A stretch of DNA of 64,000 nt from a virus (taxonomy: Duplodnaviria; Caudoviricetes). The stretch is taken from the IMG/VR virus record IMGVR_UViG_3300029288_000085, positions 80,335 to 144,334 of that record; one strand, written 5' to 3'. The translations under genes and the position numbers were made by a program. Below the pieces are notes generated by a model. The model saw nothing but the letters and a program-made list of their open reading frames with translations, was not told the origin of the DNA and did not search any database. Below are positions 4,227 through 41,643 of this stretch, in pieces; positions within the stretch are counted from its first letter, which is position 1, and each line of letters begins with the position of its first letter.

Positions 4227-5252
4227 TTAACATCTTCCGATCCGAATATTCTTGCGTATATATCTAGACAATAATTTTTTGGCTAATGAACATATTGAAG
4301 TCTTTTCAGATGAAGATCCATCACCAAAACTTACAGCTACATCTCCTATTGCTACACTTCTAGCTCCTAAATCTTTGTATGTTGAAAGTGTTTCAATCTG
4401 TTGGTTTTCTGCAATGAAAAGAGTCTGTTCACTCTGTGCATCTTTTATATCTTTAGATAGTGGAAAAAATAACTTGAATTGAGAGTTAATTGTAGGAGAC
4501 GCTGAAAACGATGATTCAAGTGTTATAGATCCGGTGGTTACATTTGATTTACTGATATTTCTTATTTCATAAAGTGGAGTACCAGTAGTTATATGTATAG
4601 TACCTTTTGCAAAAAAATTGGTTGGATATTCATTATAAGTAGATGATTTCAATGTGGAATTTCTAAAGGAACTAGTTGTAAATGGGGTTCCACAGTTACC
4701 AGTTTTTACTTCATGATCATCTCGTGGAAATTGTAATGCTTGTGAATCATAATATTTCTGACCAATAAAACTAAATGAATCTATTTCTTTTGCTGATTCA
4801 ATTAGTAGTCTTTTTTTACCTTCAACATCCAAAGTATCCCACTTATTATCATGCCCATACTTATTTCTGATATAATCATTTGCTTCCTTTAAAGTGATAT
4901 ATGAATTTGCACTCATATCACCTAAATTCGTATTTAATGTAACATTTCCAAACACTTCACAAGTTATATATTTTATATATCTATCTCCAGTGCTAGTCTT
5001 TGCACGAATTTTAATCGAATAAGTTTCACCAGTTACTCCTCTATTGAGTCTAAATTTACCTGTTCTTGGAGAACTTGCAGAAACATTAGACATCATACTG
5101 GCATTTTTAGACACATTGTTGTTATCATAAATAGATGCCCAACAACTAGCAATAGTATCACCAGAGGGAAATTCGTTTGTAAAGTCGTACTTTACATTGA
5201 ATATTTCTGCTGGATACTTATATAACCAAGAATTTTCATAGGTAAATTTCAT
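4227..5252 (-). CDS. Head-tail adaptor (DnaT_2-like) fused to an N-terminal fibre-adaptor-like Ig domain
   Basis: C-terminal ANSYITLKEANDYI...LLIESAKEID...FIGQK...QALQFPR...IKDAQSEQ...SVAIGDVAVSF; N-terminal KYPAEIFNVKYDFT...GDTIAS...GVTGETYSIKIRAKTSTG. Confidence 0.65.
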   Translation of the reverse strand: MKFTYENSWLYKYPAEIFNVKYDFTNEFPSGDTIASCWASIYDNNNVSKNASMMSNVSASSPRTGKFRLNRGVTGETYSIKIRAKTSTGDRYIKYITCEVFGNVTLNTNLGDMSANSYITLKEANDYIRNKYGHDNKWDTLDVEGKKRLLIESAKEIDSFSFIGQKYYDSQALQFPRDDHEVKTGNCGTPFTTSSFRNSTLKSSTYNEYPTNFFAKGTIHITTGTPLYEIRNISKSNVTTGSITLESSFSASPTINSQFKLFFPLSKDIKDAQSEQTLFIAENQQIETLSTYKDLGARSVAIGDVAVSFGDGSSSEKTSICSLAKKLLSRYIRKNIRIGRC

Positions 5253-5265
5253 TTGACATACTTCC

Positions 5266-7476
5266 TTATTTAAATGTTGTTTTCCTTTTATTGGATATAA
5301 AGCTTCTAGATCTCGTTATAATTAGACTAGATGACTTTCTTATTTCTGCAAAATTTCTTGTTCTTTCTAAATCATTAAATTCATATCTGAATACATCATA
5401 TGATGAACTTTGTGAACTAGAGCTAGAAGACTTTGAGCTAGATGATTTAGAACTAGAAGACTTAGAGCTAGAAGACTTTGAGCTAGACGACTTAGAACTA
5501 CTGACAGAGCTAGAACTTTGTGAACTAGAGCTAGAAGACTTAGAACTAGACGACTTAGAACTACTAACAGAACTAGAACTTTGTGAACTAGAACTAGAAG
5601 ACTTAGAACTACTAACCGAACTAGAGCTAGAAGACTTAGAACTACTTTGTGAGCTAGAACTAGATGATTTAGAACTAGACGACTTAGAACTACTAACCGA
5701 ACTAGAGCTAGAAGACTTTGAGCTAGAAGACTTAGAACTACTTTGTGAGCTAGAACTAGATGATTTAGAACTACTTTGTGAGCTAGAACTAGAAGACTTA
5801 GAACTACTTTGTGAGCTAGAACTAGAAGACTTAGAACTACTTTGTGAGCTAGAACTAGATGATTTAGAACTACTTTGTGAGCTAGAACTAGATGATTTAG
5901 AACTACTAACCGAACTAGAGCTAGAAGACTTAGAACTACTAACAGAACTAGAACTTTGTGAACTAGAACTAGAAGACTTAGAACTACTAACCGAACTAGA
6001 GCTAGAAGACTTAGAGCTACTAACCGAACTAGAACTAGATGACTTAGAGCTACTAACCGAACTAGAACTAGATGACTTAGAGCTACTTTGTGAGCTAGAA
6101 CTCTGTGAACTAGAACTAGAAGACTTAGAACTAGATGATTTAGAACTACTAACAGAACTAGAGCTAGAAGACTTAGAACTACTAACAGAGCTAGAACTCT
6201 GTGAACTAGAACTAGAAGACTTAGAACTAGATGATTTAGAACTACTAACAGAACTAGAGCTAGAAGACTTAGAACTACTTTGTGAACTAGAACTAGAAGA
6301 CTTAGAACTAGATGATTTAGAACTACTAACCGAACTAGAACTTTGTGAACTAGAGCTAGAAGACTTAGAACTACTAACAGAACTAGAACTTTGTGAACTA
6401 GAACTAGATGATTTAGAACTACTCTGTGAACTAGAGCTAGAAGACTTAGAACTACTTTGTGAACTAGAACTAGAAGACTTAGAACTAGACGACTTAGAAC
6501 TCGACGACTTAGAACTACTAACAGAACTAGAACTCTGTGAACTAGAACTAGAAGACTTAGAACTAGATGATTTAGAACTACTGACAGAGCTAGAACTCTG
6601 TGAACTAGAACTAGACGACTTAGAACTACTAACCGAACTAGAGCTAGAAGACTTTGAGCTAGAAGACTTAGAACTACTTTGTGAGCTAGAACTAGATGAT
6701 TTAGAACTACTTTGTGAGCTAGAACTAGAAGACTTAGAACTACTAACCGAACTAGAGCTAGAAGACTTAGAACTACTTTGTGAGCTAGAACTAGATGATT
6801 TAGAACTAGATCTACTTGAACTTATACTTGAAGAACTTTTACTAGAAGATGATTTACTTGAACTAGACTTAGAACTAGATGATTTAGAACTACTTTGTGA
6901 GCTAGAACTAGAACTAACAAAAGTACCCCCGCCAAAATCATCAATTCTAAGATTAGTTCCATAACAACATAGTCCGATATATCCAGCAGACCCATAAGTT
7001 GAATCTGTTGTGGATAATTTTTCAGTCCATGCTCCTCCTGTGTAATAATAAGCTTTTAAGGCTGTACCTATCGCCGAAAGTCCAATTTTCTCCCCACTGG
7101 CTACATTCTGAGTCGTAGTTGCTAAGGTTGTCCATCCACCATTAAGCATCTCGTTGATGTCCCATGTGTCAGGAGAATCATTCAGATTTATATCTAAAAT
7201 ATATCCATCGCAAGTACCAATGTTTAAGGTTGTAGTTCTAATTGCAAGAGATACTTCATCATTAGTTACAGTGGATATAGTTGCAAAGACTTCGGAAGCA
7301 GCCCCAAATGTTGCAGTGTCCCAAGCTCCAACATTAAGGGCACCAGCAGTTCCTCCTGTACACGCATTACTCTGAATCTTAAGTGTATTGAGCATATTCG
7401 TCCAATTCGCATTGGGCGGGGTGGTATTATTCGCACCCGTGAATGTTTCAATTACACCAGTAGTAGGAAATGCCAT
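5266..7476 (-). CDS. Serine-rich repeat virion protein (N-terminal beta-sandwich/lectin-like head, ~500-aa poly-Ser stalk, short basic C-terminal tail)
   Basis: ORF track. Residues ~1-187 are globular and Trp/Thr/Gly-rich; residues ~188-692 are Ser runs punctuated by K/Q/V. Located in the virion module directly upstream of the adaptor. Confidence 0.75.
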   Translation of the reverse strand: MAFPTTGVIETFTGANNTTPPNANWTNMLNTLKIQSNACTGGTAGALNVGAWDTATFGAASEVFATISTVTNDEVSLAIRTTTLNIGTCDGYILDINLNDSPDTWDINEMLNGGWTTLATTTQNVASGEKIGLSAIGTALKAYYYTGGAWTEKLSTTDSTYGSAGYIGLCCYGTNLRIDDFGGGTFVSSSSSSQSSSKSSSSKSSSSKSSSSKSSSSISSSRSSSKSSSSSSQSSSKSSSSSSVSSSKSSSSSSQSSSKSSSSSSQSSSKSSSSKSSSSSSVSSSKSSSSSSQSSSSVSSSKSSSSKSSSSSSQSSSSVSSSKSSSSKSSSSKSSSSSSQSSSKSSSSSSQSSSKSSSSSSQSSSSVSSSKSSSSSSQSSSSVSSSKSSSSKSSSSSSQSSSKSSSSSSVSSSKSSSSKSSSSSSQSSSSVSSSKSSSSSSVSSSKSSSSKSSSSSSQSSSSQSSSKSSSSSSVSSSKSSSSSSVSSSKSSSSSSVSSSKSSSSSSQSSSSVSSSKSSSSSSVSSSKSSSSSSQSSSKSSSSSSQSSSKSSSSSSQSSSKSSSSSSQSSSKSSSSSSQSSSKSSSSKSSSSSSVSSSKSSSSKSSSSSSQSSSKSSSSSSVSSSKSSSSSSQSSSSVSSSKSSSSKSSSSSSQSSSSVSSSKSSSSKSSSSKSSSSKSSSSKSSSSSSQSSSYDVFRYEFNDLERTRNFAEIRKSSSLIITRSRSFISNKRKTTFK
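5400..6918. repeat. Low-complexity coding tandem repeat (TCTAGT/TCTAGC units) encoding poly-Ser
   Basis: Plus strand reads gaactagaactagaagacttagaactact...; includes 30-bp units such as ctactttgtgagctagaactagaagactta repeated many times. Confidence 0.95.
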
Positions 7477-7985
7477 TAGCTGTTCGCTACCTCATCATCA
7501 GTTGCATCAATACTTTTTGTTGGTCGTGTATCACCATCAACTACTAATTCTCCACTTGTAGTATCTAATCTAGGAGTTAGTCTTCTTCTAGCAGCAAATC
7601 TTAAGACATCACCTAAAGTTTTTTCTCCAATATCACTTCCAATATTATCTCTAATCTCTTGTAGAGGATACCCCATATTTCTAAGTTTATTTACAATCGT
7701 ACTTTTCTGTTGTGATGTGAGATCAGATAATGAATGTGACAACATATTCTTAGGTAATCGTATAACTCCTGTTAATGCAGCTATAGCATTCAAAGTCTGA
7801 TCAGATGCCCGTATTTTAGCAATTATTACATTTCCAAGAGCTTCAGATCCCGCCCAAGCTCCACCATCTCCAAAAATCTGACTTGATAATTCTAAGAATT
7901 TTGGTCTTCTAGTCCATTTTGGAAATCCGTTTGGATCAGGATTAACCCATATAGTATAAGGTGCTATAAACCATGCTACAGACAT
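7476..7985 (-). CDS. Hypothetical protein translationally coupled to the Ser-rich gene
   Basis: ORF track; TAATG overlap at 7476. Confidence 0.7.
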   Translation of the reverse strand: MSVAWFIAPYTIWVNPDPNGFPKWTRRPKFLELSSQIFGDGGAWAGSEALGNVIIAKIRASDQTLNAIAALTGVIRLPKNMLSHSLSDLTSQQKSTIVNKLRNMGYPLQEIRDNIGSDIGEKTLGDVLRFAARRRLTPRLDTTSGELVVDGDTRPTKSIDATDDEVANS

Positions 7986-8011
7986 TGTAGAATTCCCCCT
8001 TTTAAATATTA

Positions 8012-8713
8012 CTATGCTAAAATATAATATTTTCTCAACAAACTGTCGAGACGTTCTGATACTGAAACAATACCAGTATTCTTTCTATTCAACCTATGAA
8101 TTTCCCAAGCAATCCTACTAAGCGGATTCATATGAGAAACTAAGATAGGCTTTTCAGCTCTTTGTCCTCTTTCTTTATAACCAGAACATCCTACATTATA
8201 GGTAGAATTGATTATAGTTACTCTATCTCTAACTGTGGATGACTTTAGAATTTTATTAAGGGTTGGTTCTTCTTTATTCTCACCCTTTGAAATAATAGTT
8301 GTTATAATGTTTATTATATCTTTTGCTGCTGGATATCTCCAAAATACACTTCCACCATTTAATTTAGGATTACTGTATGTTGCAATTCCTACATCTTTTA
8401 TTTCTGGTGGATCGAACTTATAATTTTGCCAACAATCTAGGTCTTGACTCCATATGATGTTATCATTAATAAGATTTTCAAAAATCCACAGTAATGCAAA
8501 CATCTTTGACCCAGTTAAACAATGTTTATTCAATTCTATATTATTTGCACTTACTCCCATAAATTCAAAATCAAAATTACTCACTAAGATAATATCCTTC
8601 TTATTCCATTCTAATTCAATCATGTTATCTATCTGTGCTTTTAAATTAGTGATTATATTTTCTTTTGAATAACGACCTTTTGATTGCACGTTTGCAACCA
8701 TTAATCTTTTCAT
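8012..8713 (-). CDS. Putative GT-A glycosyltransferase
   Basis: DLD (DxD) motif, LNGGSVF, YNVG; context. Confidence 0.55.
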   Translation of the reverse strand: MKRLMVANVQSKGRYSKENIITNLKAQIDNMIELEWNKKDIILVSNFDFEFMGVSANNIELNKHCLTGSKMFALLWIFENLINDNIIWSQDLDCWQNYKFDPPEIKDVGIATYSNPKLNGGSVFWRYPAAKDIINIITTIISKGENKEEPTLNKILKSSTVRDRVTIINSTYNVGCSGYKERGQRAEKPILVSHMNPLSRIAWEIHRLNRKNTGIVSVSERLDSLLRKYYILA

Positions 8714-9561
8714 ATATCTATCTCTTGCTCAAAATTCTTAATAAGATGTGCCTTACCCCAATGTTGATTCATATTTGCTTTAAATTTTTTACAAGCAATA
8801 TTACAAAGTGAAATTAAAGCATTTCTTCTCTGGGTATACTTCCAATCTTTATCAGGATAGTTATCAATAAAATGACGTTTATGATGTTCTACTACTTGAC
8901 AGAAATCACCAGTGAACTTTGTTATTGTAAATCCCAAATGGTATGCTCTACACAGAATATCCTCATCATCAAATCCATAAGCAGAACCGAAGGATTCATC
9001 GTAGCCTCCTAAATCATCAATAAATCTACTTTTGAAAAATCCTAATCTTCCTCTATTTGTTTGCTTACTCTTAATAAAGACTAGTTTGTCAGTATCAAAC
9101 TGATTAGCTATTTCATTTATTCTTTTCGAAAATCCAAAAAGGGTTAAATGATCTGCATCAACATTATTGACTATATCTCCTGATGCAATTTTGAAAGCTA
9201 TGTTTCGTGAGTGTGTCATACTATAGAACTTTGGTTCTATTGTTTTATAGTAATTCAAATAACCTTCTTTAATATATTCTGACAACTCATGCTTAACAAA
9301 GTCATCCATATCATCATTACTGTTATAGTTCAATAATACAAACTCCGTATTTGGGTACGTTTCAATATTATCAATTAAATTAGTAACATATGTTTTTTTA
9401 AGATCATAAGTTCTTCCCATACACGTAGTGCAAATTGAAATCTTATATTCTTTTCTTATTGGATTTATAAATTCTGGTAAAACATACTCAAGGTTGAAAT
9501 ACTTTTCCCACACGTCTTCATTAGTCAAACCTAATAAGAAATCATCTCTCATCCTCATCAT
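8710..9561 (-). CDS. Glycosyltransferase family 2/7-like
   Basis: ISICTTCMGR, SRNIA, NVDAD, LGGYDESF...YGFDDEDI. Confidence 0.85.
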   Translation of the reverse strand: MMRMRDDFLLGLTNEDVWEKYFNLEYVLPEFINPIRKEYKISICTTCMGRTYDLKKTYVTNLIDNIETYPNTEFVLLNYNSNDDMDDFVKHELSEYIKEGYLNYYKTIEPKFYSMTHSRNIAFKIASGDIVNNVDADHLTLFGFSKRINEIANQFDTDKLVFIKSKQTNRGRLGFFKSRFIDDLGGYDESFGSAYGFDDEDILCRAYHLGFTITKFTGDFCQVVEHHKRHFIDNYPDKDWKYTQRRNALISLCNIACKKFKANMNQHWGKAHLIKNFEQEIDI

Positions 9562-10076
9562 AGTTTAGTTGCCCACACACAATCCTCTAACAGTGTAATA
9601 TTGTTACCAAATAATCTATCTATCACTACAGCTACATCCTTATGTCTTCGAGAATTATAGTCATGCCCAGACAATATACCATCTTTTCTGATATGAGGAA
9701 TCCAAGCAATGATATCCCGTTCTAATGCTGCCATGGAATGATCTGCGTCTATATAAACCATGTCAAAATATTCTAGTGGAAATATACTTGCTGCTTCAAC
9801 AGATTCCATCCTTAAAACTTTCAAAGCAGAAAAATATCTCATTAAAGTACAGGCATATTTATATAGACTATTCCAATCGTTTGGAGTAAGTCTAGACATA
9901 CGACCTTTATCACTTCCAAAGAAGCACCACGAATCAATTGCCCAATATTCCTTCACTTGTTTAGTATTCTTAAGTACATGTTTTACGGTTTTACTTTTCC
10001 ATATTCCTACTTCTGCAATCCTTTTACACTTATTATCTAGTATAAGTTTTAATACTGATTCACTATGAATTGGCAT
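9558..10076 (-). CDS. Class I SAM methyltransferase (Methyltransf_24-like)
   Basis: AEVGIW...IDSW...FDMVYIDADH...GILSGHDY. Confidence 0.85.
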   Translation of the reverse strand: MPIHSESVLKLILDNKCKRIAEVGIWKSKTVKHVLKNTKQVKEYWAIDSWCFFGSDKGRMSRLTPNDWNSLYKYACTLMRYFSALKVLRMESVEAASIFPLEYFDMVYIDADHSMAALERDIIAWIPHIRKDGILSGHDYNSRRHKDVAVVIDRLFGNNITLLEDCVWATKL

Positions 10077-12591
10077 AAATATCTATAATTACCTCATTCC
10101 ACTTTGCGGGGTCTAAATTAGCTTTTGCCCAATCTTTAGCATTTTGACCCAATGCTTGTCGAAATTTTTCTTTTCTTATTAATGTACTGAGATGAACTAA
10201 ACATTCATCATAATGAGTAAAATAGTATCCTGTATCACCATGAATTATTCTATCTTTTGTACCATCTCTAGGTTCTGAGAGAATTGGCAATCCGGTAGCT
10301 AAAGCTTCTGCAATACAACGAGGATAGTTATCTCTCCACATATTACTTGTTCGATATAAATATATATGTCCTTTGCTTAAAAATTCTTCTACTGGGATTT
10401 CATCCCATTTAAAGAACTTCATCCGTGGTTCATCCTTAAAGAATTCTGCAAGTTCTTTATGAGCTTCCATAAACCAAAATTGTGTATTCTTAGTATCTTT
10501 GAGAAGTCTCTGATAAAATTTAGTATCTAATTCCTTATCAAGATGTTTCTGCCATATATGTATTTTGCTTCCATTCTTCACAGATTCATTAGTAGTATAT
10601 TTTCTATAATCTGGAGTACAATGTTTAAGTACTATGAGAGGTTCATCTTTTTCTCTTGGTTTTGTACATACCTCGTAGAATTTATTCATATCTATAGCTC
10701 CAAATAATACTATCTTCTTCGTATTATCAAATCCAATAACTTGTCTTTCCCATTCCTGTTTCTTCTCTTCATTTTGAAATATAACTGCCTTCAACTTATT
10801 TGATTTGATAAGCCATTCTGAAATATCAGGATTCTTGAGATGACCAAACATATAATTAATGCCTATTATAAGTATAGAACATTTATCAACTAATTTCTTA
10901 CCAGCTTGTAAAAAATCATTTATATTATCGTTACCATAGAATAGTAACGGGGTATTTTCAATACATTCAGATATACATCTTCCACCATCGGGCTTGAAAC
11001 TATAGTTTGATAGGTGTACATTCTTAGATTTTATATCTTTATAATTTTCATGTACACTATCCCAAGGAAATAATTGGACATCCCACCCTGCATCACCTAA
11101 TACATCAGCAATCTTAATCAGACTTTGTTCCCCACCACCATGACTACTGAGACTACCTAACAGATTTATAGATTTAGTTTTTTCAACAATTTCAAAGCTA
11201 TTAGAAATTTTAATTGCATCATCAGTATTTACTTTATCGCATGCAACACACGTTGTACAATCATCACTATCAGAAGCTATGCAATCTCTTCTGTTCATAT
11301 ATGTATAAATATCTCCTTCATAATATCGTTTTATTGCTCTTATGACATCGTCCGAAGTAATCACATCCATACACTCTTGGATAGTTCTACCATCAGAAGA
11401 AGTTGTACTTTTACATAAATTCTTATTTTGCTTTGGATCTTTAGGTATAGGTATAATCCTAGATTTCCAACATCCACCATTATCACAACATGTAAATACT
11501 CCATTTGTATGAAGAATCTGATGATTACAGTATTCTGTCCACGCTTTTGACTCTCTACCACCTTCTATAACTACACAGGGCTTTCTCCCTTTTTCAGTAT
11601 ACTTAGATGGAATTGCTGCTGCAAGATGCATTAACATACTGATACCGCTAATGCAACCATCAGCATGATAGACTAGGGAAACTAGTGGTCTCATATTATC
11701 ATTGAATTTATCAGTCAAATCAATGATATTATTCAACTTTTCTACTAAATGATCACTTCGTCCTATAACTACAAATTTTATCTTTCCTTCAAAATGGTCT
11801 ATGACTTCTTGGAATCTTCTCCAATCCCAAATCTTTGTAGTGGCATCCCGTTTTCCTCCAGGAGCTATTAGCCAATACTTATTATATCCATATACCTTTT
11901 GTATAAGATCATGTTTCTTTTCATCTTCACTTAAATGAATATCCCCACGTTGTCTAGCAAATGACTTTCCAAAGTTCTTATATTGATTTACTAATGAGAT
12001 GAATGGTTCATGAGAATTAGCATTCTTGTCTGGTTTACCAAGACAAGGATCTCCTACTTCACCATTTGCAAAAGCACTACAGAATTCTCCTAATGACACA
12101 GGAAGACTTTTATGTAAATCAGTGATAGCAATCATATCTAATAGAAATGCCATCGTGAAGTGTACGTATGTATTATTTGCCGACGCAATTGCTGGATATC
12201 CAACATCATAATATTCAACATCTTTGTCTTCTTTTTTCAAAGACCTATCTATATATGGATTATTTTCCCAAATCCAAGGTTGACTACTATCTACATTTAT
12301 TCTTATATCTGGAAAGAGAAGTTTGAAATCTCTAACCCCTGCACTAAACATTAAGGCATCTCCTACTGCTCGTTTATGTGCAAAGATTATTTTTCTATCA
12401 TTATTATCTGATTCTGTTAAATTCTGAGCCACTTCTTTTTTGAATATTGTATCATCAGGAGTATGAAGATGTAGATGACCGTCATCAAACTTCAACCCGA
12501 TCAATACTTGGCTTAAACTTTTATCACCAATTTCTTTTGTTTTGAGTATATCTTCTGCCTCATCTAGAAGTCTCTGTTTTATCTTATTCAC
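10063..12591 (-). CDS. Bifunctional glycosyltransferase (GT9 heptosyltransferase-like plus GT4-like)
   Basis: N-half AVGDALM...ENNPYI...TTKIW...ISMLMHLAAA; C-half GGGEQS...DNYPRCIAEALATGLPI...IIHGDTGY. Confidence 0.8.
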   Translation of the reverse strand: MNKIKQRLLDEAEDILKTKEIGDKSLSQVLIGLKFDDGHLHLHTPDDTIFKKEVAQNLTESDNNDRKIIFAHKRAVGDALMFSAGVRDFKLLFPDIRINVDSSQPWIWENNPYIDRSLKKEDKDVEYYDVGYPAIASANNTYVHFTMAFLLDMIAITDLHKSLPVSLGEFCSAFANGEVGDPCLGKPDKNANSHEPFISLVNQYKNFGKSFARQRGDIHLSEDEKKHDLIQKVYGYNKYWLIAPGGKRDATTKIWDWRRFQEVIDHFEGKIKFVVIGRSDHLVEKLNNIIDLTDKFNDNMRPLVSLVYHADGCISGISMLMHLAAAIPSKYTEKGRKPCVVIEGGRESKAWTEYCNHQILHTNGVFTCCDNGGCWKSRIIPIPKDPKQNKNLCKSTTSSDGRTIQECMDVITSDDVIRAIKRYYEGDIYTYMNRRDCIASDSDDCTTCVACDKVNTDDAIKISNSFEIVEKTKSINLLGSLSSHGGGEQSLIKIADVLGDAGWDVQLFPWDSVHENYKDIKSKNVHLSNYSFKPDGGRCISECIENTPLLFYGNDNINDFLQAGKKLVDKCSILIIGINYMFGHLKNPDISEWLIKSNKLKAVIFQNEEKKQEWERQVIGFDNTKKIVLFGAIDMNKFYEVCTKPREKDEPLIVLKHCTPDYRKYTTNESVKNGSKIHIWQKHLDKELDTKFYQRLLKDTKNTQFWFMEAHKELAEFFKDEPRMKFFKWDEIPVEEFLSKGHIYLYRTSNMWRDNYPRCIAEALATGLPILSEPRDGTKDRIIHGDTGYYFTHYDECLVHLSTLIRKEKFRQALGQNAKDWAKANLDPAKWNEVIIDIYANS

Positions 12592-13148: not shown

Positions 13149-13151
13149 AAT

Positions 13152-15680: not shown

Positions 15681-15689
15681 TTAAATCAC

Positions 15690-22510: not shown

Positions 22511-22637
22511 CTCATCTCATAATAATTACATCCTTTAACTTGATGTATTTTTTTATGCAATGTATGCAAACCATACCCCATTCACGTTTATTAAATTCAT
22601 TGTCTTTCCTATCCTCAAGACATTTTACACATTTCAT
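22504..22637 (-). pseudogene. HNH endonuclease remnant (frameshifted)
   Basis: MKCVKC...MVCIHC, then in a shifted frame HKKIHQVKGCNYYEMRC; DNA aaaggatgtaattattatgagatgaggtgt is near-identical to the remnant at 4143-4226. Confidence 0.55.
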
Positions 22638-23349: not shown

Positions 23350-24238
23350 CTCCTGATTTTCCTAATCCACTACCATTATAAAACATCAGCCTCTTATCTT
23401 CTACATCTACTACACACGAAAAACAGATTTGTTCTGAATCCCAACCAGTTTCAGATACATCTATGCCAACTTCACTATCTTTTCTTATCCACTTCACTCC
23501 ATCTTTAGATTCTGCATATCCTATTCTATATCCTACATCAAATCTTCTTATAGAATACCACATTTTATATATTCTATCCTCTTTGATGACCCAAGGACGA
23601 GCTAACCCAAACTCATGTTTAGATCTTGGTATATAACATGGAAATCCCATTTTAAACATTTCACCATCCGTCGATGAAGCATAAGATATACTATAACGTT
23701 CAACATCTTTACCATTATATTTTGCTATAAACCCCGTTCTGCTTCCTGTATACCACATTTTATATCTATCGAAATCTTTTATGACACATGATGCTGATCT
23801 AGCAATAAATTCTATATTAGTTCTATCTAAAATAGGAATTTGGTATTTTCTAATAAATGTATCTCCATTATCTACACTAGTAGCTAATCCAGTAAAAAGA
23901 ATTTGTGGTGCTTCAGTAGTTTTCATAAAACCAAAGTAATATAAGTATTTTATCTTACCAAAATTTAATATACAGGAAGGAACTACGCCATGTTCATCAA
24001 ATGTACCTTTTTCTCCTTGTATAAGACATGGTTCTTCTGATTCGTATAGTATTTTCTTTGGGTTGGATTTATCAACATCAATATATCCAATACGACCAAT
24101 CATATTTTCATCTAGTGAAGTAGTATATATACGGATACAATCATCCCTAATATCTACTGTAGGAAGATATGCCCGTTCTCTAGCCCACCACTTTTTTCCA
24201 TTAGGTTTCCAGATGAAACCACATTTCTGCCATTTCAT
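23324..24238 (-). CDS. Five-bladed beta-propeller glycoside hydrolase-like protein
   Basis: GTFDEHGV, YKMWY repeated twice, YRIGYAESKDGVKW, GWDSE, YNGSG.GKSGVG. Confidence 0.7.
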   Translation of the reverse strand: MKWQKCGFIWKPNGKKWWARERAYLPTVDIRDDCIRIYTTSLDENMIGRIGYIDVDKSNPKKILYESEEPCLIQGEKGTFDEHGVVPSCILNFGKIKYLYYFGFMKTTEAPQILFTGLATSVDNGDTFIRKYQIPILDRTNIEFIARSASCVIKDFDRYKMWYTGSRTGFIAKYNGKDVERYSISYASSTDGEMFKMGFPCYIPRSKHEFGLARPWVIKEDRIYKMWYSIRRFDVGYRIGYAESKDGVKWIRKDSEVGIDVSETGWDSEQICFSCVVDVEDKRLMFYNGSGLGKSGVGYAQLCK

Positions 24239-25005
24239 TTAAGACAGTTTTCCTTTGCTTCTGATTCATCACTACATACATTACAATTTATACATTTAGA
24301 ATAACCAGTCGTATAATCATCAAAATTTAGTATCCATTCATGTCCTAATATATCTCTATAATATGGTTTAGTAAGATTTAATCTATTGTCTTCTTTATCA
24401 CGTTTCCAAGTATGTCCTTCTTTGTATAATGAATTAGCTTTAATAAATGTAGAATCTGGTACATTGATATTATTTATAACTGTACTATTAACCCCAAAGA
24501 AACAATTGTTTCCTATAGTCACATGACCACAAATACAAACTTCTGAAGTGATAAGATTATGTGATCCAATAACCGAATGATGCCCAACATGTGAATTAGC
24601 CCAAATTGTCGTATTTTCTCCTATTTTTATAAAGGGTTGAATAGTATTACCTTCCATTATAAAACAACCTTCACCAACTATTACATTATTCCATACTGAT
24701 GCTTTGCTACTGATATAAGTTGCCATTTCATAACCTTTATCTCGTGCTTCATAAAACTTCTTTTCTCTTAATTTGAGATTATCCCCATAACCAACAGCAA
24801 TAAACATCTTATGAAAGTTAGGATCATATATGTCTTCAACATATTCAAATTCCACAATAGGCAAATTGAATTTTGATGTTTCTTTCATATGACTTTTATC
24901 TACTGTAAAAGCCACAACTTTAAGATTAGAATCATGAGTAAAATATTCATATGCTAGTTCTGCAAAAGATGAAGTACCAAAAATTACTATTTGCTTATTA
25001 ACCAT
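24235..25005 (-). CDS. Sugar O/N-acetyltransferase (NeuD/PglD hexapeptide family) with C-terminal Cys/His extension
   Basis: IVIFGTSSFAELA, FIAVGY, hexapeptide repeats, VGHH. Confidence 0.85.
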   Translation of the reverse strand: MVNKQIVIFGTSSFAELAYEYFTHDSNLKVVAFTVDKSHMKETSKFNLPIVEFEYVEDIYDPNFHKMFIAVGYGDNLKLREKKFYEARDKGYEMATYISSKASVWNNVIVGEGCFIMEGNTIQPFIKIGENTTIWANSHVGHHSVIGSHNLITSEVCICGHVTIGNNCFFGVNSTVINNINVPDSTFIKANSLYKEGHTWKRDKEDNRLNLTKPYYRDILGHEWILNFDDYTTGYSKCINCNVCSDESEAKENCLK

Positions 25006-25006
25006 A

Positions 25007-25951
25007 TTAATTTAACTCCTTACGATATGTCTTTCTTAATACTCCCCTACCACCAAACCCACTCTTAAATTTAAATAATCCCCAATTCACTTTTTCACCC
25101 TTATCTTCTGTCGATATTCCTAAGTTTGCATACTTATAACTATTATCTAACCCCCACCTCATTACTTTATATATCACAACATTGAGAGAACGAAGAATCT
25201 GAAATTCATAATTCTGAGCAATATAAAAGATCTCAAAAGCATTCTCATTACCTTTGAATATTACAATTCCAGCAGTCATTATATCTTCGTTATATGCAGT
25301 TACTAAAATTATATCATATGGAAATAAATTCTTTAGTCTTGTTATCTCTTCAATTGTATGTGTGGGCGCAACAGAATGTCTCTGTTCTAGATTCTTAGTG
25401 AGAATTTCCCAATATTTTTGCCATTCAATACTGTCAAATTCAATTCTAATATCCTGTGCTTTTCTTATTGAACGTTCTGTTGAATCATCAATAAGAAATA
25501 GATTGTCTAACCGTATTGTACAAGCAAGATCCTTTGCAGAAAGGTTATATCCATTTCTTAAAAGCATATATTCTAATTCATCACTTGGAACCTTATTATA
25601 GATATAAGGTGTCAATCTTAACTCAATTGCTTTATAAGAGGGAAATGATAGTAAGTCAATTATTTCACGGATATCATCAAGGTCAGTATGGTAAGATAAT
25701 ACTAAACCTCCAATAGAACTACCTGGATGGCTAAATATAATCTTCTTTCCATTTTCAGATTTTTCTGCTGCTGGAAGTACAGCTACAAGTTCATTTCTTT
25801 TATAAAACATTAAGGATTTGTCTATGAAGCGATTTTTGTGGTAGGATAAAAATTTACGCAGATGAAAGATAGTGCCATTCTTTGAATTTTTTAAAACAAA
25901 TAGATCCCATGAATCGGCTAGTAAGTCATTATAGTTTACACAACTGATCAT
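25007..25951 (-). CDS. GNAT/FemAB-like acyltransferase
   Basis: NGTIFH..KFLSYH..RF.D.SL, SHPG, PTHT, LGISTE, GLFKFKSGFGG. Confidence 0.8.
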   Translation of the reverse strand: MISCVNYNDLLADSWDLFVLKNSKNGTIFHLRKFLSYHKNRFIDKSLMFYKRNELVAVLPAAEKSENGKKIIFSHPGSSIGGLVLSYHTDLDDIREIIDLLSFPSYKAIELRLTPYIYNKVPSDELEYMLLRNGYNLSAKDLACTIRLDNLFLIDDSTERSIRKAQDIRIEFDSIEWQKYWEILTKNLEQRHSVAPTHTIEEITRLKNLFPYDIILVTAYNEDIMTAGIVIFKGNENAFEIFYIAQNYEFQILRSLNVVIYKVMRWGLDNSYKYANLGISTEDKGEKVNWGLFKFKSGFGGRGVLRKTYRKELN

Positions 25952-26936
25952 CTTCCCATTTCCTTGGTATCTCTTCCCCTGACAGGAAAGCCTCTAAAAT
26001 ATTTTTAAATTCCAAAATTCGATGTCTATCTAAATGATATCTGTTGATGACCTGAACAGCGTTGTCAACTATAACTTGAGCCTCATCTAGATTTTCTCTT
26101 ATGTATTTCACTACTTTTATTATGTCACTAAGATCATTCTTATACTCAAAGAAAAATTCTTCTTCACCAAATAATTCTTTCTGTCCATAAAACCAAGGGG
26201 TTAATAATACTGTTCCACTTGCCATTATTTCAAACATCTTTCCCAGAGTACAATGTAAATCACCACCAGCATCTGATAGTCCAATAGTATATTTTCTTAA
26301 TTCTATTGGATATTCTTTAGCTGGAATTATTTCTCTGTTAACTATTAAATTATGTTGTGATAATTTATCAATAGCATTTTTCCTAAGACTATATAACTTT
26401 TCAGCTTTACCTATATTACCTAAGAAGACTACATTATTTACTCTCTGATGTAATTTTTCCCCTTCATTAAATTCATTTTCATTTACTGACAAAGGAAGCC
26501 AAACTTTAGGCATAGTTAGTGGATCATTTTTCTTCATATATGACCTATTTATCATAAGATCAAATCCCATGTTACTGTACCAGTTAAGATCTGTATCATA
26601 CAGTACAGCATAATAATCACCCTCAAAAATTACAAATGGTATGGAACTTAACTTATTCTTTGCTGGCATCCAATTGTGTGTTAGATTATATGTGAATGCA
26701 ATTATGATATCTGGTCTGAATATACTATATAAATCATCTAGTGTATACTTACTATTATATTCAACAGGTGACAAAATTTTATCATTTAGAGTTTGTTCTT
26801 TAGGGCCATAAATGTTTACTTGGTGAAATTGTATCATCTTCATCCAAAAATCAAAATGTAATCTACTAACATATGATCTTACATCACCTATTGAGGAATC
26901 AAATAGATATAGTAGCTTCATTTTATAGCCCACCAA
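25929..26936 (-). CDS. Glycosyltransferase (CgeB-like), paralog of 21521-22510
   Basis: RPDII, WLPLSV, KMFEIMASGTVLL. Confidence 0.75.
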   Translation of the reverse strand: MVGYKMKLLYLFDSSIGDVRSYVSRLHFDFWMKMIQFHQVNIYGPKEQTLNDKILSPVEYNSKYTLDDLYSIFRPDIIIAFTYNLTHNWMPAKNKLSSIPFVIFEGDYYAVLYDTDLNWYSNMGFDLMINRSYMKKNDPLTMPKVWLPLSVNENEFNEGEKLHQRVNNVVFLGNIGKAEKLYSLRKNAIDKLSQHNLIVNREIIPAKEYPIELRKYTIGLSDAGGDLHCTLGKMFEIMASGTVLLTPWFYGQKELFGEEEFFFEYKNDLSDIIKVVKYIRENLDEAQVIVDNAVQVINRYHLDRHRILEFKNILEAFLSGEEIPRKWEDDQLCKL

Positions 26937-27430
26937 TCAGCAGTATCTGTATCTTCACATTTAAAACAATATAGTTGTACATCCATATGATCACAGAAGA
27001 ACTCATCTACTGCTTTTGTTACATTCAAATCGGTAAAATCATGTCCAGCAAATAACCCATCTAATTTTACTTTTGGATAGTATAACTCTAAATCTAATTT
27101 TATGTTATCATATTTATGATCCCCATCTATATATACAAAATCTAAAGTCTCATCATTAAATAAATTAATTACCTTTGCAGAAAAGTTTTTAATCCAAACA
27201 ATTTTAGCTATATATTTTGAATCTAATCGACTATGGGCCAAATTTTCCCATCTGTTAATATTTTCTTGTCTAAAATGCTCATATTCTATGTAGGGGTCAA
27301 TCAAATATAATAAGGCTATGTCAAGATTTTCTAGAATATTAAGAGCATTTTCTCCAGAACTAACCCCAATCTCAACACCAGTAAGATTTTTTCTATTTTT
27401 TATTACTCTGAATGCTGGTCTACTTATCAC
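26918..27430 (-). CDS. Class I SAM methyltransferase (Methyltransf_24-like)
   Basis: GVEIGV...LIDPY...LDFVYIDGDH...AGHDF. Confidence 0.85.
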   Translation of the reverse strand: MISRPAFRVIKNRKNLTGVEIGVSSGENALNILENLDIALLYLIDPYIEYEHFRQENINRWENLAHSRLDSKYIAKIVWIKNFSAKVINLFNDETLDFVYIDGDHKYDNIKLDLELYYPKVKLDGLFAGHDFTDLNVTKAVDEFFCDHMDVQLYCFKCEDTDTADWWAIK

Positions 27431-28854
27431 GGCTTAAATATCCAAAAGTCATGAGATCTAGAATCATTAGCATCAACCGCAGAAAAGATTTCTACACCTT
27501 TAGCTTTGAAAAAATCATATACTGCTCTTTTTACTTGATTACCATCATTCTCCTCATCAAAATCATGCCCTGCAACAAGACCTCCTGATTTGACTTTAGG
27601 ATAATATAATTCTAAATCTTTCATCACTGCATCATATTTATGATCCCCATCTATATATACAAAATCTAATAATCTATCAATCTTCTCATATGCCTTGTCT
27701 GATGGCTCATAAATCCATGTGATTTTACGCATAAAATTATGAAGTAATTTTATAGAATCATTCTTTGTTTCATCATCATTTATATATGGGTCTATAAGAT
27801 ACATGTGTTCAATACTTAGATTAGCAAATATATTAAAGGCATTCTGACCTCTAAAAACGCCAATCTCTGCACCAATCATATCTTTCTTATCTTCAAGATT
27901 CCTGATTGATGGTCTATCTATTTTTCTAACTATATTTACCATTCGAGCAAATACAGCTTCCCAAGTATATTCATTTACAGCCCTTGTTCTACCATTTATT
28001 GCAACTTTATAAGCCATACTATCATCAACTGATTTCATTAACTTGAGTAAATCATTTTCATTTTTGAAATAGAAAAGGTCTTTCTTGTCTTCAAAATATT
28101 TATTGAGTGTGCCAGTTGAATCTAAATGAAATACACAAGAACCACAAGCAAGGTATCTTATCAGTCTATTACTAAAATATTCTGTATGGATATCATTATA
28201 AGTATTTAATGATAGCATAAATTTTGATGATGAACACACTGTTGCAAAATCTGATTCAACAACTTCTTGTGGACTGTAACCATTACCATAGAACTTCACA
28301 TTATATCCGGCATCCTCAAGAACCTTTTTATACTTGTCACGTTCTGGAGTTTTAGAACCAATAAACGATATATCTGCTATACAATTACTATTTGAGTCTG
28401 TTGGTCTAAAAATGCTTGCGTCAATACCTTGTATAATGTGATGACATTTTCTTACACCCTCTGATTCGAACCATTGAGCAATATCTAATCCTGTACAAGA
28501 ACTGAAATTAGCATTTTTAGCATGTTGTATAACTTCAGGGCAAGATTCAATCGTCTTTTTAGGATCAGGATTAAATAGCCATGTTTGCGTATAAGCATTA
28601 CTTTTAGTAATAAGATCTGAATTCATACCATTACATTTGAAAAATACAGTTAAATATGGTCTGTGCTTATCTAATGTATATAACAACATATCTTCAAAAA
28701 ATTTATTTCCTTTACTAGATATAATTGTCCTATAATTTATAGGTAGTACTTCAAACCCTAACCTCAAAGCAGCTTTCGAAAAAGCAATATTTGTAGATCC
28801 TCGTTTGTCTAAAACGCCGACTATACAAATTGTTTTCTTATCATTATTATCCAT
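27427..28854 (-). CDS. Glycosyltransferase (CgeB-like) fused to Methyltransf_24-like domain
   Basis: DISFIGS...YFSNRL..YLACG...EYTWE followed by GAEIGV...FVYIDGDH...AGHDF. Confidence 0.8.
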   Translation of the reverse strand: MDNNDKKTICIVGVLDKRGSTNIAFSKAALRLGFEVLPINYRTIISSKGNKFFEDMLLYTLDKHRPYLTVFFKCNGMNSDLITKSNAYTQTWLFNPDPKKTIESCPEVIQHAKNANFSSCTGLDIAQWFESEGVRKCHHIIQGIDASIFRPTDSNSNCIADISFIGSKTPERDKYKKVLEDAGYNVKFYGNGYSPQEVVESDFATVCSSSKFMLSLNTYNDIHTEYFSNRLIRYLACGSCVFHLDSTGTLNKYFEDKKDLFYFKNENDLLKLMKSVDDSMAYKVAINGRTRAVNEYTWEAVFARMVNIVRKIDRPSIRNLEDKKDMIGAEIGVFRGQNAFNIFANLSIEHMYLIDPYINDDETKNDSIKLLHNFMRKITWIYEPSDKAYEKIDRLLDFVYIDGDHKYDAVMKDLELYYPKVKSGGLVAGHDFDEENDGNQVKRAVYDFFKAKGVEIFSAVDANDSRSHDFWIFKP

Positions 28855-29275
28855 TTATCTTCTCCATTATTCCTATAATAATATTATCATAAGTATCTGG
28901 TTTTCGATATACAATCACATCATCCTCTTCAGTTGGCTTTTCAAAGTATGAATCTTTCCACATATACTCAGTTGTACCATCAACAAATATCTGAATAGGT
29001 TTGATAAACTTCCTCATACACTCCAACCTCACTTTTCTAATTGGAGCAACCATTGCTATAATTGGTAAAACACCTTGCTTCTCAAATCTAGCTGCTAGAT
29101 TAGATAACATATGCATCCATTTTGTTCTATCCTCATCAGTAAATCCTTTATAATATAAATCTTCTCTCATCTCATCTGCATCAAGTAATATCGAATTACT
29201 AATACTACTATTAAGATATCTTCCTAACGTACTTTTTCCCATTTTTACATACCCAAAAATAATGATTACTGCCAT
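28847..29275 (-). CDS. cysC: Adenylyl-sulfate (APS) kinase-like protein
   Basis: P-loop GYVKMGKST, LLDADEMR, GFTDEDR, IAMVAP...R, FEKP; shorter than cellular CysC. Confidence 0.7.
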   Translation of the reverse strand: MAVIIIFGYVKMGKSTLGRYLNSSISNSILLDADEMREDLYYKGFTDEDRTKWMHMLSNLAARFEKQGVLPIIAMVAPIRKVRLECMRKFIKPIQIFVDGTTEYMWKDSYFEKPTEEDDVIVYRKPDTYDNIIIGIMEKING

Positions 29276-29797
29276 TTATTTTTCCACACTCCAATCCCAA
29301 TCTTCAACACGTATCATTTTTTGTAGTGGATAGAAATAATCATTTACAGCCTTTACTACTTGTAGCCTGTATATCTTTTTAAAATCGTGCCCTGCAATCA
29401 ATCCACCTATCTTTATTTTAGGATAAAAAAGAGCAATATCTTGCAATACATAAGGGTATCGATGATTACCATCAACATAAGCAAAATCCAATGGATCTCT
29501 GACATGAACAGCCATATTTTCTGATAATCCTCTTAACCACACTAGCTTATCTTCAAATGGGGCTAATATCTTTTTAGCATATTCCATGCATTTCAGAGCA
29601 GTTTCACTATTAGAAATTACACCATGCCCTTGCATATGATCATAACACATCCAAGGATCTATTAAATATAGTTTTTTAATATTAAGATAGGTAAGCATAG
29701 AGAGGGCATTTTCTCCTGAGTCAACTCCAACTTCACAGCCAACAAGATTTGATTTTTCAGATAGGACTTTTAAGGAAGGTCTTAATTCTTGTATCAT
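29276..29797 (-). CDS. Class I SAM methyltransferase (Methyltransf_24-like)
   Basis: GCEVGV...LIDPW...DFAYVDGNH...AGHDF. Confidence 0.85.
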   Translation of the reverse strand: MIQELRPSLKVLSEKSNLVGCEVGVDSGENALSMLTYLNIKKLYLIDPWMCYDHMQGHGVISNSETALKCMEYAKKILAPFEDKLVWLRGLSENMAVHVRDPLDFAYVDGNHRYPYVLQDIALFYPKIKIGGLIAGHDFKKIYRLQVVKAVNDYFYPLQKMIRVEDWDWSVEK

Positions 29798-29799
29798 TA

Positions 29800-30798
29800 T
29801 TATCCTCTTTGGATTATTTCATTTAACTTATTTATATCATCCCCTAATACACAATCAAATTCATTTATACCAGAATTTTCTGGTATAATAGTAATTATTT
29901 TCTCCCTCATTAATGCATCAAGGAATACCGCAAGATCTTTTGCAACGGTGGTAGCATCTATAGCTCTATAATCATAAACATATCTAAAAGAGCATGGAGT
30001 TTCAAATCTATTTTCTGCGATACAATGTCTATCCTTCTCATGTCCTATAATTAAAGAAGGAGTTCCACAAAGTAGTCCGACATGAGTAAGACCTGATTGA
30101 CTACTCACACAAGCTACAGATTTACACATATAATCCATTACCTTTTCAAACTTATCATCACTTTTATCAGGAATAAGATTAATTACATTCTCACCTTGGT
30201 AATCTGCAAGAAAGGAACCAGAGGGTGTTCCACATAATACTACATAGAAATCTTCTCTTAGTATATCTACTAATTCTCTCCAAACATATTCAGGAACATT
30301 TCTAATTGCTGCACGAGAACGCCCACGAGGACATACACATACGTATGGTCTACCTCTTATAGTACGATTACTATTTTCAGTGGAATAGCGGGCATACATG
30401 GAGGGTTTATGATTTGGCCAGAACTTATCCGTTCCACGTGGTGGCCAAAACTCAATAGCTTTAGAGGGGTTATAAAACTGTCTAAAATACTCTATTAATT
30501 TGGCGTAAACATCTGGGGGTGTAAGCGAACCTGGAGGACTTCCTGGTAATGGTGATTCAAAGCAATCCTTCTCAAGTTGTAATTCCTTAAACCAATCTGG
30601 TAGGTCCACTGTGTAGGATGTAAAATCATGTACCAAGACATGAAACTGAGTATCCATCATTATGATAAACTTCCTGTCTTGGTACATGTTATTTTTCATA
30701 TATCTAAGTAATGATTGATAATATTGACATAGCCAACCGAGTTCCCCGCAAAAGAAACTAACAAAACAAGGTTCATCCACATAAAGTTCTTGTTTCAC
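29800..30798 (-). CDS. GT-B (GT9-like) glycosyltransferase
   Basis: GELGW, VVLCG, VINL, SQSGLTHVGLLCGTP. Confidence 0.55.
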   Translation of the reverse strand: MKQELYVDEPCFVSFFCGELGWLCQYYQSLLRYMKNNMYQDRKFIIMMDTQFHVLVHDFTSYTVDLPDWFKELQLEKDCFESPLPGSPPGSLTPPDVYAKLIEYFRQFYNPSKAIEFWPPRGTDKFWPNHKPSMYARYSTENSNRTIRGRPYVCVCPRGRSRAAIRNVPEYVWRELVDILREDFYVVLCGTPSGSFLADYQGENVINLIPDKSDDKFEKVMDYMCKSVACVSSQSGLTHVGLLCGTPSLIIGHEKDRHCIAENRFETPCSFRYVYDYRAIDATTVAKDLAVFLDALMREKIITIIPENSGINEFDCVLGDDINKLNEIIQRG

Positions 30799-41400: not shown

Positions 41401-41643
41401 TCATCCTCTATACCATTCTTCATCAACAACTGTAATGCTCTTGAGAATAGTTATTGGAACGTAGGCTTTTAGAATAGTCTTTCTGCTAAAAAATGACTTA
41501 GGTTTATCACGGAACTCAATTCGTTGATACCCATTTAGTTCATCATTGAAAACTTCAACAAAGTCAGCAGTATACCATTCCTTACTTCCATCTGTGAGAT
41601 TAACTTCCCAAACAATCATGGCTTGGCTTCTCCTCTTCCTCAC
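41401..41643 (-). CDS. Hypothetical protein (likely start at MIVWEV)
   Basis: ORF track; GAGGAG RBS before MIVWEV. Confidence 0.55.
   Translation of the reverse strand: MRKRRSQAMIVWEVNLTDGSKEWYTADFVEVFNDELNGYQRIEFRDKPKSFFSRKTILKAYVPITILKSITVVDEEWYRG

Follow-up and report, generated by a model that had tools for sequence, protein, structure and literature searches.

A two-module glycan gene island beside a poly-serine protein gene in the late operon of an uncultured tailed phage

The 64-kb window analysed here is the last part (positions 80335-144334) of IMG/VR virus record IMGVR_UViG_3300029288_000085, a 144,334-bp genome with direct terminal repeats (DTR) that is 100% complete by CheckV. 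Between its major capsid gene and its head-tail adaptor gene lies a glycan island with about ten glycosyltransferase (GT) domains and six methyltransferase domains (five Methyltransf_24 and one Methyltransf_23), which ends with the gene of a protein carrying a long serine tract. We report that this island is a composite of two modules, A (13152-30798) and B (5266-13148). Module B, whose hallmark is an 842-aa double GT, appears from its sequence relatives to be a widespread, mobile and essentially phage-only cassette. The double GT lies beside Ser tracts in about 60% of the lineages with enough flanking sequence, which makes it probable that phages with this arrangement sugar-coat their particles. 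For the phage studied here, we consider O-glycosylation by module B reasonably likely, with the Ser stalk of a lectin-headed fibre as its substrate; the fibre would dock on a Gp77-like adaptor domain, and module A would add or decorate sugars.

Results

Two modules make up the island

Module A sits at the same place, next to Mu-like capsid genes, in relatives L002, L007/L010 and L008/L011/L012 (L numbers designate the loci compared), and the capsid protein is 66-70% identical in L002, L007 and L008. The shared module runs from a GT9-like gene through methyltransferases, a CgeB-like GT, a DegT aminotransferase, a radical S-adenosylmethionine (SAM) enzyme, a GT8, a 215-aa protein and a sulfotransferase to RmlB. 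In L008 and L011 the adaptor gene comes directly after RmlB, and the block 5266-13148, from a 186-aa protein through the poly-Ser gene, has no counterpart in L008-type relatives. Between capsid and tape-measure genes, L008-type loci hold nothing Ser-rich and no homologue of the N-terminal domain of the poly-Ser protein (hereafter N-domain). The closest long relative, L010, stops just after RmlB, and the L007-L009 loci were extended by walking with exact-protein matches. IMG/VR pattern scans with single proteins (the adaptor and the first module-A GT) found nothing, and alignments were used instead.

Whole-record searches, in which the positive controls worked, retrieved ten module-A records without the double GT, among them a 135.7-kb DTR record, and four double-GT records without the module-A GT, among them a complete 175-kb record. 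In the records and loci examined, this phage is the only one with both modules, and among those with module A the sole carrier of the double GT is the sole carrier of a poly-Ser gene. The initial annotation had taken the island for one 25-gene system serving one acceptor, a view that finds no support, the 17.6 kb of module A being present in ten relatives' records lacking the double GT. The correlation that it expected between the island and the Ser-rich gene among relatives holds for module B and fails for module A, which stands without a Ser-rich ORF in the relatives' loci that were read. Support for poly-Ser as the acceptor is thus confined to module B, and module A must have another or an additional target.

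In the relatives' late operon, Mom-family (PF25680) and CapR-domain genes lie beside module A (L008:3549-4289, L011:17830-19446); no counterpart was noticed in this window.

The double GT accompanies poly-Ser tracts

More than 312 homologues of the double GT were found at 50-60% identity, with 33 IMG/VR loci and 150 metagenome matches. The search of 185,579 species genomes returned two matches, both on 10-12-kb contigs of metagenome-assembled genomes (L066 and L067). These are binned as Pirellulales and Methanothrix, and the first ends in a poly-Ser ORF; both look like mis-binned phage fragments and offer no reliable host clue. The gene order common to double-GT loci is double GT, methyltransferase(s), GT2 and a homologue of the 233-aa protein of module B.

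Flanks of the double GT were scanned for poly-Ser ORFs, defined by at least 50 residues in windows of at least 60% Ser, and lineages were defined as clusters at 90% double-GT identity or more. Of 25 lineages, 15 have a poly-Ser ORF no more than 10 kb from the double GT; once metagenome loci are added, 27 of the 46 lineages having at least 8 kb of flank do. All 69 poly-Ser ORFs share the strand of the GT, several being immediate neighbours; since 31 of them hit a contig end, the rate is underestimated. None of 28 control loci without the double GT has such an ORF (Fisher p = 5e-7 and 2e-5), these controls being relatives of this phage rather than a random sample and the lineages being not fully independent. 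The link between the poly-Ser protein and GTs, initially drawn from this locus, is thus found again across lineages.

Outside this phage the tracts belong to recognisable tail proteins, and the proteins bearing them are not homologous to one another; they include a DUF2460 protein and two minor tail proteins, one of them of the Phage_tail_L family (1.8e-39). Location after the capsid gene recurs in L019, for both the cassette and a poly-Ser gene, and in L015/L016/L028 a Gp77 gene lies between the cassette and the poly-Ser gene. No description of poly-Ser tracts paired with phage transferases was found in the literature searched.

Two loci deserve separate mention. At L039, the double GT begins right where a 1585-aa ORF (L039:5248-10005) with 1565 Ser-rich residues ends, and 3.7 kb downstream another ORF, of 831 aa, is Ser-rich over 645 residues. 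In a 123-kb phage contig, an IS605 OrfB/TnpB gene (Cas12f-like) is inserted in module B between the GT2 and the 233-aa homologue (L015:17788-19080 and L016:17788-19080).

Folds of the module B enzymes

In the structural model of the double GT (predicted local distance difference test score, pLDDT, 84.6), residues 64-431, the GT9 half, superpose on 3tov (Z 20.9, root mean square deviation (rmsd) 3.0, 265 aligned) and on WaaF 1psw (Z 19.2, rmsd 3.5, 261 aligned). The GT4 half superposes on BshA 6n1x (Z 29.4, rmsd 3.3, 334 aligned), PimA 2gej (Z 27.7, rmsd 3.0, 326 aligned) and GtfA 4pqg (Z 23.0, rmsd 3.3, 330 aligned). SdgB and Gtf3 also come below BshA, and in the model the likeness to GtfA and SdgB looks like generic GT4 resemblance only. 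The assignment of the N-half to GT9 comes from fold comparison only, in a match list that is dominated by the C-terminal domain and does not include TibC. Neither GT9 nor TibC matches to the N-half were obtained from the PDB by profile or single-sequence search, and the double GT does not match TIGR04414 (hepto_Aah_TibC). At its end, the GT9 half contains an insertion with six Cys residues (339, 368, 369, 374, 393 and 407) that are invariant among 33 homologues. As the GT9 half and the module-A GT9-like family show no detectable relation beyond the nucleotide-binding lobe (hhalign E 0.02), the two GT9-type proteins are not treated as paralogues.

The structure clusters nearest to the 233-aa GT-A protein are 83-100% viral, and homologues at 48-55% identity occur in module-B loci. 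The 186-aa junction protein has a 39% homologue upstream of the double GT in L014 and is found too in module-A loci L052/54/55/57. The GT count of the initial annotation, about 11 domains, comes down to about ten, the 233-aa ORF (8012-8713) adding a GT-A fold; its six methyltransferase domains are all recovered.

The poly-Ser protein

The Ser tract spans 505 residues, of which 411 are S, 50 K, 24 Q and 18 V (about 80% Ser), with S3, S4 and S6 runs. It is in continuous frame with the N-domain. Its serines are encoded by five different codons, spanning both codon boxes, and such codon scrambling of Ser tracts indicates selection at the protein level. The protein begins with MAFPTTG, without a hydrophobic leader, and its basic C-terminus has no LPXTG. 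This phage was also assembled a second time (143,217 bp), and there the protein keeps both termini unchanged but has 359 aa vs 736 aa; this 377-aa difference accounts for the gap in genome length between the two assemblies. It reflects either true repeat-length variation or assembly collapse. The earlier description of some 500 residues of almost pure Ser therefore stands for composition, the length of the tract being uncertain.

The N-domain family comprises 2530 cluster representatives at E <= 1e-3. In most of them the domain makes up the whole protein, of about 205-220 aa; others have different repetitive extensions at the C-terminus or contain the domain within a long tail protein; among the best 150 representatives, this phage's own protein is the only one with a Ser tract. 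N-domain relatives match the PHROG families 'virion structural protein' and 'tail protein'. The model (pLDDT 96.9) is a concanavalin A (ConA)-like beta-sandwich, whose nearest structures are CBM66 and legume lectins and whose fold also resembles a mycobacteriophage baseplate protein. The N-domain had no match by tblastn among 50,697 isolate phage records and no useful match in the PDB by profile or single-sequence search; its alignment is too variable for a pattern scan and unusable as a broad control.

Predicted chemistry of module A

Domains were assigned with Pfam and NCBIfam profiles (Table 1), and every enzyme class named in the initial annotation is present, the GT8 and the first GT9-like protein falling below Pfam thresholds and being assigned through homologues and weak profiles. 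The GT9-like protein has more than 100 homologues at 45-63% identity and a weak profile match to WaaF 1psw, and scores 19.8 bits against TIGR04414, for which the cut-off is 200. In many relatives (P0164, P0170, P0173 and others) it is fused with the next Methyltransf_24 into a protein of about 500 aa, the two being separate genes here (29276-30798). The L008 homologue of the GT8 is a clean PF01501 match, and the Methyltransf_24 domains, for which a TylF match was seen, belong to the sugar O-methyltransferase type.

RmlB, a DegT aminotransferase and a VioB-type acetyltransferase form the standard route to an N-acetylated 4-amino-4,6-dideoxyhexose. All three enzymes of the dTDP (deoxythymidine diphosphate)-4-acetamido-4,6-dideoxyhexose route (viosamine/Fuc4NAc-type) are present, with scores slightly under the equivalog cut-offs for the dehydratase and the acetyltransferase. 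A nucleotidylyltransferase (RmlA) was not found among the phage genes, and the host must therefore supply the nucleoside diphosphate (NDP)-glucose. The pairing of an adenosine phosphosulfate (APS) kinase with a sulfotransferase implies sulfation dependent on phosphoadenosine phosphosulfate (PAPS), for which APS would come from the host. On the capsid, decoration-like and tail-tube proteins, considered as possible acceptors for module A, no obvious Ser/Thr-rich tail was noticed.

Two ORFs, one in the island (14163-15005) and one in the neck module (1047-1985), are HNH-endonuclease-like. Both match one L010 region, which suggests that they are mobile homing endonucleases; the first, counted with the island in the initial annotation, is not a glycan enzyme.

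The additional GT noted at 2-1018 proves to be only part of a 394-aa gene. It has no Pfam match and gives weak matches only, to the glucosyltransferase of PDB 4w6q (9e-4, Gtf3/GtfC-type) and to a WbbI-type transferase (7.9e-6); a 55% homologue in L011 carries PF26337 Gtf3_C.

Late-operon setting

The G+C content of the window is about 31%. The late operon occupies the minus strand from about 42663 down past the window start into tail genes, among them an ORF of tape-measure size (1767 aa) and the gene of a Phage-tail_3 protein of 1497 aa. As initially described, the capsid-to-adaptor interval (4227-35187) is one co-oriented minus-strand operon, whose genes nearly all overlap or abut. A relative's 236-aa adaptor aligns solely to residues 104-341 of the adaptor of this phage, so that the N-terminal Gp77-like domain is specific to this phage.

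A hydropathy scan of all 212 ORFs of the genome detected no polytopic membrane protein (no protein has more than three hydrophobic segments), and no island protein has more than one weak hydrophobic segment. Among island proteins there is no Pfam match to initiating polyprenyl-phosphate transferase, flippase or polymerase families. The reported absence of Wzx/Wzy/ABC export and of carrier-lipid machinery therefore holds.

Table 1. Predicted features of the capsid-to-adaptor interval and flanking late genes, in window coordinates
Feature	Position	Strand	Profile, structure or homologue support
Large terminase TerL	38803-40710		Mu/Mushu-like, 31-34% identity
Major capsid protein (Mu gpT-like)	34225-35187	-	phrog_371 and PF10124; upstream boundary of the head-neck interval
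GT9-like GT, first gene of module A	29800-30798	-	PF01075 2.3e-4, TIGR04414 (Aah/TibC) 3.2e-4, both far below cut-off
Methyltransf_24 (sugar O-methyltransferase type)	29276-29797	-	PF13578 1.7e-12
APS kinase (PAPS from APS)	28847-29275	-	PF01583 3.1e-12, TIGR00455 1.3e-10; homologue in L008/L009
CgeB-like GT fused to Methyltransf_24	27427-28854	-	PF13524 2.5e-13 (residues 181-305), PF13578 7e-13 (residues 330-432)
Methyltransf_24	26918-27430	-	PF13578 8.8e-13
CgeB-like GT	25929-26936	-	PF13524 8.7e-8
FemAB-like acyl/aminoacyl transferase (weak)	25007-25951	-	PF02388 1.6e-3, TIGR03019 1.3e-8, below cut-off; 53% homologue in L007
NeuD/PglB/VioB-type sugar N-acetyltransferase	24235-25005	-	TIGR03570 4.7e-46 (157 bits, cut-off 160.8), Hexapep, PglD_N
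GH130/GH32-like beta-propeller candidate	23324-24238	-	NF052550 beta-1,2-mannobiose phosphorylase 3.3e-11, far below cut-off; 46% homologue in L007
Methyltransf_23 class I methyltransferase	22615-23349	-	PF13489 3.9e-12
CgeB-like GT (Glyco_trans_1_2)	21521-22510	-	PF13524 1.4e-5
309-aa protein	20635-21564	-	no Pfam or NCBIfam match
DegT/PseC-type sugar aminotransferase	19679-20647	-	PF01041 1.1e-29, TIGR03588 2e-17
B12-binding radical SAM enzyme (methyltransferase-type)	18432-19682	-	PF02310 and PF04055; HpnJ-like 1.9e-44
Methyltransf_24	17900-18442	-	PF13578 2.5e-12
299-aa protein	17025-17924	-	no family match; 45% identity over 302 aa in L010
GT8-like GT-A glycosyltransferase	16334-17053	-	PF01501 1.4e-4, below cut-off; 54-67% homologues in L008/L010
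215-aa protein	15690-16337	-	in module A of all relatives; 43-44% identity in L010, L008
Sulfotransferase	15006-15680	-	PF13469 3.4e-10, PF00685 4.1e-6; conserved in L008/L010
HNH-endonuclease-like insert	14163-15005	-	matches same L010 region as HNH gene 1047-1985
dTDP-glucose 4,6-dehydratase RmlB, last gene of module A	13152-14162	-	TIGR01181 2.6e-97, PF16363 4.4e-63
186-aa protein, module A/B junction	12588-13148	-	possible half GT-B domain (weak); Atlas model of low confidence
842-aa double GT, module B hallmark	10063-12591	-	Pfam GT9+GT1 fusion; folds GT9 (N-half) and GT4 (C-half)
Methyltransf_24 of module B	9558-10076	-	PF13578 1.8e-10; homologues in L014/L015/L019
GT2 of module B	8710-9561	-	PF10111 9.9e-9; 44-50% homologues in L014, L015, L019, L021, L039
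233-aa virus-specific GT-A-fold protein	8012-8713	-	Atlas structure, template-modelling (TM) score 0.70-0.72 to GT8/Nucleotid_trans clusters
169-aa protein, stop overlaps poly-Ser start	7476-7985	-	no family match, no homologue in any locus fetched
Poly-Ser protein	5266-7476	-	lectin-like N-domain 1-190, 505-residue Ser tract, 44-aa basic tail
Head-tail adaptor (Ad1/DnaT_2, phrog_477)	4227-5252	-	PF20557 2e-14; N-terminal Gp77-like fibre-adaptor domain PF23148 1.4e-7, residues 12-93
GT, C-terminal 339 aa of 394-aa gene in neck/tail module	2-1018	-	gene extends past the window; no Pfam match here

Discussion

A model for glycosylation of the virion

From gene content, folds, synteny and co-occurrence we infer the enzymatic steps, the acceptor and the presence of the fibre in the virion. 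Both modules would be transcribed together with virion genes, and their enzymes would all be soluble. In the host cytoplasm, the module B enzymes (double GT, GT2, GT-A protein and O-methyltransferase) would O-glycosylate the Ser tract of the adjacent fibre, whose lectin-like head would be followed by a Ser stalk of about 500 residues and then by a short basic tail. This fibre would dock at the neck through the Gp77-like domain fused to the adaptor in this phage alone. Module A, presumably older in this lineage than module B, would convert host NDP-glucose into an N-acetylated 4-amino-4,6-dideoxyhexose by means of RmlB, DegT and the VioB-type acetyltransferase. It would also bring further transferases as well as O- and probably C-methylation, and sulfation would proceed in two steps, the phage kinase making PAPS from host APS and the sulfotransferase then using it. 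In relatives, the target of module A would be another late product, most likely a head protein, and in this phage module A may also extend or decorate the Ser-stalk glycans.

Several points weigh against this model. Donor and acceptor specificities are not readable from GT folds, GT9, GT8, GT2 and GT4 are also typical families of lipopolysaccharide (LPS) core synthesis, and the double GT has no sequence-level match to TibC. The fibre may bind the virion by either end, and the length of the tract differs between the two assemblies (359 vs 736 aa). Module A clearly works without poly-Ser, and about 40% of the double-GT lineages with long flanks have no poly-Ser ORF nearby. Furthermore, because the controls were drawn from the wider lineage of this phage, the association could partly be due to shared descent.

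A wider and frankly tentative proposal, on which we would lean slightly to the doubtful side, is that many uncultured phages make a viral mucin, in which long, genetically unstable poly-Ser tracts on fibres and tail proteins would be densely O-glycosylated in the host cytoplasm by a phage-specific cassette pairing GT9 with GT4. In the present phage the glycans would be methylated, sulfated and supplied with a phage-made aminodeoxy sugar, resulting in an anionic glycocalyx that cellular genomes do not encode.

Alternative readings of the island

Common ancestry could explain the co-occurrence of the double GT with poly-Ser if the tract were a plain flexible hydrophilic spacer or the site of some other modification. 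Low-complexity linkers are indeed common in fibre proteins, other N-domain relatives have non-Ser repeats at the same position, the control loci come from one lineage, and roughly 40% of double-GT loci lack a nearby tract. We nevertheless regard this explanation as unlikely, given that phages with differing virion modules carry the tracts on non-homologous proteins, that the tract is often the immediate neighbour of the double GT, and that the codon-scrambled Ser tracts indicate protein-level selection. In this phage, moreover, GT, tract and docking domain arrived jointly, the GT and the poly-Ser gene in one contiguous block.

The GTs might instead act late in infection on the glycans of the host envelope (LPS core, capsule or wall polymers) and reshape them, for instance to prevent adsorption of progeny to debris or to exclude other phages, the poly-Ser protein being unrelated. 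GT9, GT8, GT2 and GT4 are classic LPS-core and polysaccharide families, several homologues are named 'ADP-heptose:LPS heptosyltransferase' by the Joint Genome Institute (JGI), and soluble GTs could use host lipid-linked intermediates without a phage flippase. Such a role is quite unlikely in view of the location of the genes in the virion late operon of a DTR phage that encodes no initiating phosphoglycosyl transferase, flippase, polymerase or polytopic membrane protein, and of a double GT that is nearly absent from cellular genomes and tracks poly-Ser virion proteins on the same strand. Highly improbable, in our judgement, is hypermodification of phage DNA with sugars by module A or the whole island just before packaging, in the manner of the late-expressed Mom of Mu. 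To our knowledge, CgeB-like proteins, GT8, GT9, sugar O-methyltransferases and a PAPS-dependent sulfotransferase have no DNA-modification precedent, and the poly-Ser association would be left unexplained. Mom-family genes do stand beside module A in the relatives' late operon, and glycan-building phage GTs that act on DNA have been described (Pyle et al. 2024, as cited in PMC12619734). A thymidylate-synthase-family gene could also encode a hydroxymethylase; it lies early, well away from the island, and is most similar to ordinary thymidylate synthases. This gene (genome 53301-54044, in the early region outside the window) matches PF00303 at 1.3e-13, with an archaeal-type thymidylate synthase as best NCBIfam match, below cut-off; sequence does not distinguish ThyA from a pyrimidine hydroxymethylase for its product.

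Comparison with known glycosylation systems

Glycosylation of the phage virion as proposed here has its nearest phage counterpart in the mycobacteriophages Che8, Corndog and Myrna, in which glycans are placed on the C-termini of capsid and tail-tube subunits (Freeman et al. 2023, as cited in PMC12619734). As summarised in that source, phage-encoded soluble GTs lying among structural genes are thought to decorate virion proteins in the cytoplasm. Here, too, the GT genes are inside the structural and late gene block, in the capsid-adaptor interval with one more in the neck/tail block. Mycobacteriophage virion glycosylation involves one to a few GTs. In contrast, this island has about ten GT domains, a sugar-nucleotide branch, six methyltransferases and a sulfation pair; the enzyme families differ, and a Ser tract of about 500 residues, carried by a separate fibre, is the putative dedicated acceptor.

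The bacterial autotransporter heptosyltransferases (BAHT) TibC and AAH, of GT9 fold, hyperglycosylate many autotransporter serines in the cytoplasm without a lipid carrier, and TibC has a Cys4 iron-finger insertion in its C-lobe (Cys339/342/358/370; PMC4358343). TibC forms a dodecamer and uses a heptose donor. The phage double GT likewise has a GT9 fold, and the insertion that holds its six invariant Cys, at the equivalent end of that half, recalls the iron finger. It differs in being fused to a GT4 and in its presumed substrate, a disordered Ser tract instead of a beta-helix autotransporter. In the absence of a TibC sequence match, the likeness is a working analogy and not family membership. 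The serine-rich repeat proteins (SRRPs) of Gram-positive bacteria have a long Ser-rich tract, to which GT-B enzymes encoded alongside add glycans in the cytoplasm, with stepwise extension (PMC7948813, PMC6973325). With this system (GtfA/GtfB, Gtf3/GtfC, accessory Sec) the phage shares a Ser-rich tract and GTs, the 394-aa neck GT being weakly Gtf3/GtfC-type. None of the SRRP export features (signal peptide, LPXTG, SecA2/SecY2, Asp proteins) was found in the poly-Ser protein or the phage genome. Furthermore, the phage tract is nearly pure Ser, unlike SASASAST-type repeats, and the product would leave on the virion and not by secretion.

Among giant viruses, Mimivirus has viosamine and rhamnose clusters for its fibrils, and chlorovirus capsid glycans are made by multidomain GT-methyltransferase enzymes. 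These viruses resemble the phage in having a viral 4,6-dehydratase/aminotransferase/N-acetyltransferase branch, GTs, sugar methyltransferases and GT-methyltransferase fusions, and their particle-surface proteins are decorated independently of host secretory glycosylation. They differ in their eukaryotic hosts and unrelated acceptors, and we know of no sulfation pair or poly-Ser acceptor in them. The Bacillus spore crust and exosporium involve CgeB and Sps enzymes, and BclA carries methylated deoxy-sugars. Like the virion proposed here, the spore is a cytoplasm-assembled particle coated by soluble enzymes, including CgeB-family GTs (three PF13524 domains are present here), RmlB-pathway enzymes and methyltransferases. 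It is, in contrast, the outcome of cellular differentiation, with collagen-like Thr acceptors and no virion, and the shared Pfam family is the only point compared. What is distinctive in the present phage is the composite architecture together with the methylation and sulfation branch.

Phage virion glycosylation has so far been known from few mycobacteriophages with a handful of transferases, and the present data indicate a larger, modular system in environmental phages, with a putative acceptor of its own, a Ser tract transferable between different virion proteins, and a hallmark double GT that is nearly absent from cellular genomes. Should the model be correct, phage surface chemistry would have to be reconsidered as regards adsorption, diffusion in sediment or biofilm and resistance to proteases and grazers, and so would the annotation of 'LPS heptosyltransferase' genes in viromes. 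The cassette would also be a new source of enzymes for cytoplasmic protein glycoengineering.

Other genes of the late operon

Between the capsid gene and the island, a 250-aa protein (33331-34083) has a C-terminal zinc ribbon (PF13248/PF13240) and lacks homologues in the relatives compared. A sigma-70 region-4 or extracytoplasmic function (ECF)-like sigma factor (41600-42007) heads the late operon; it is 43% identical to its counterpart in L007 and may drive late transcription.

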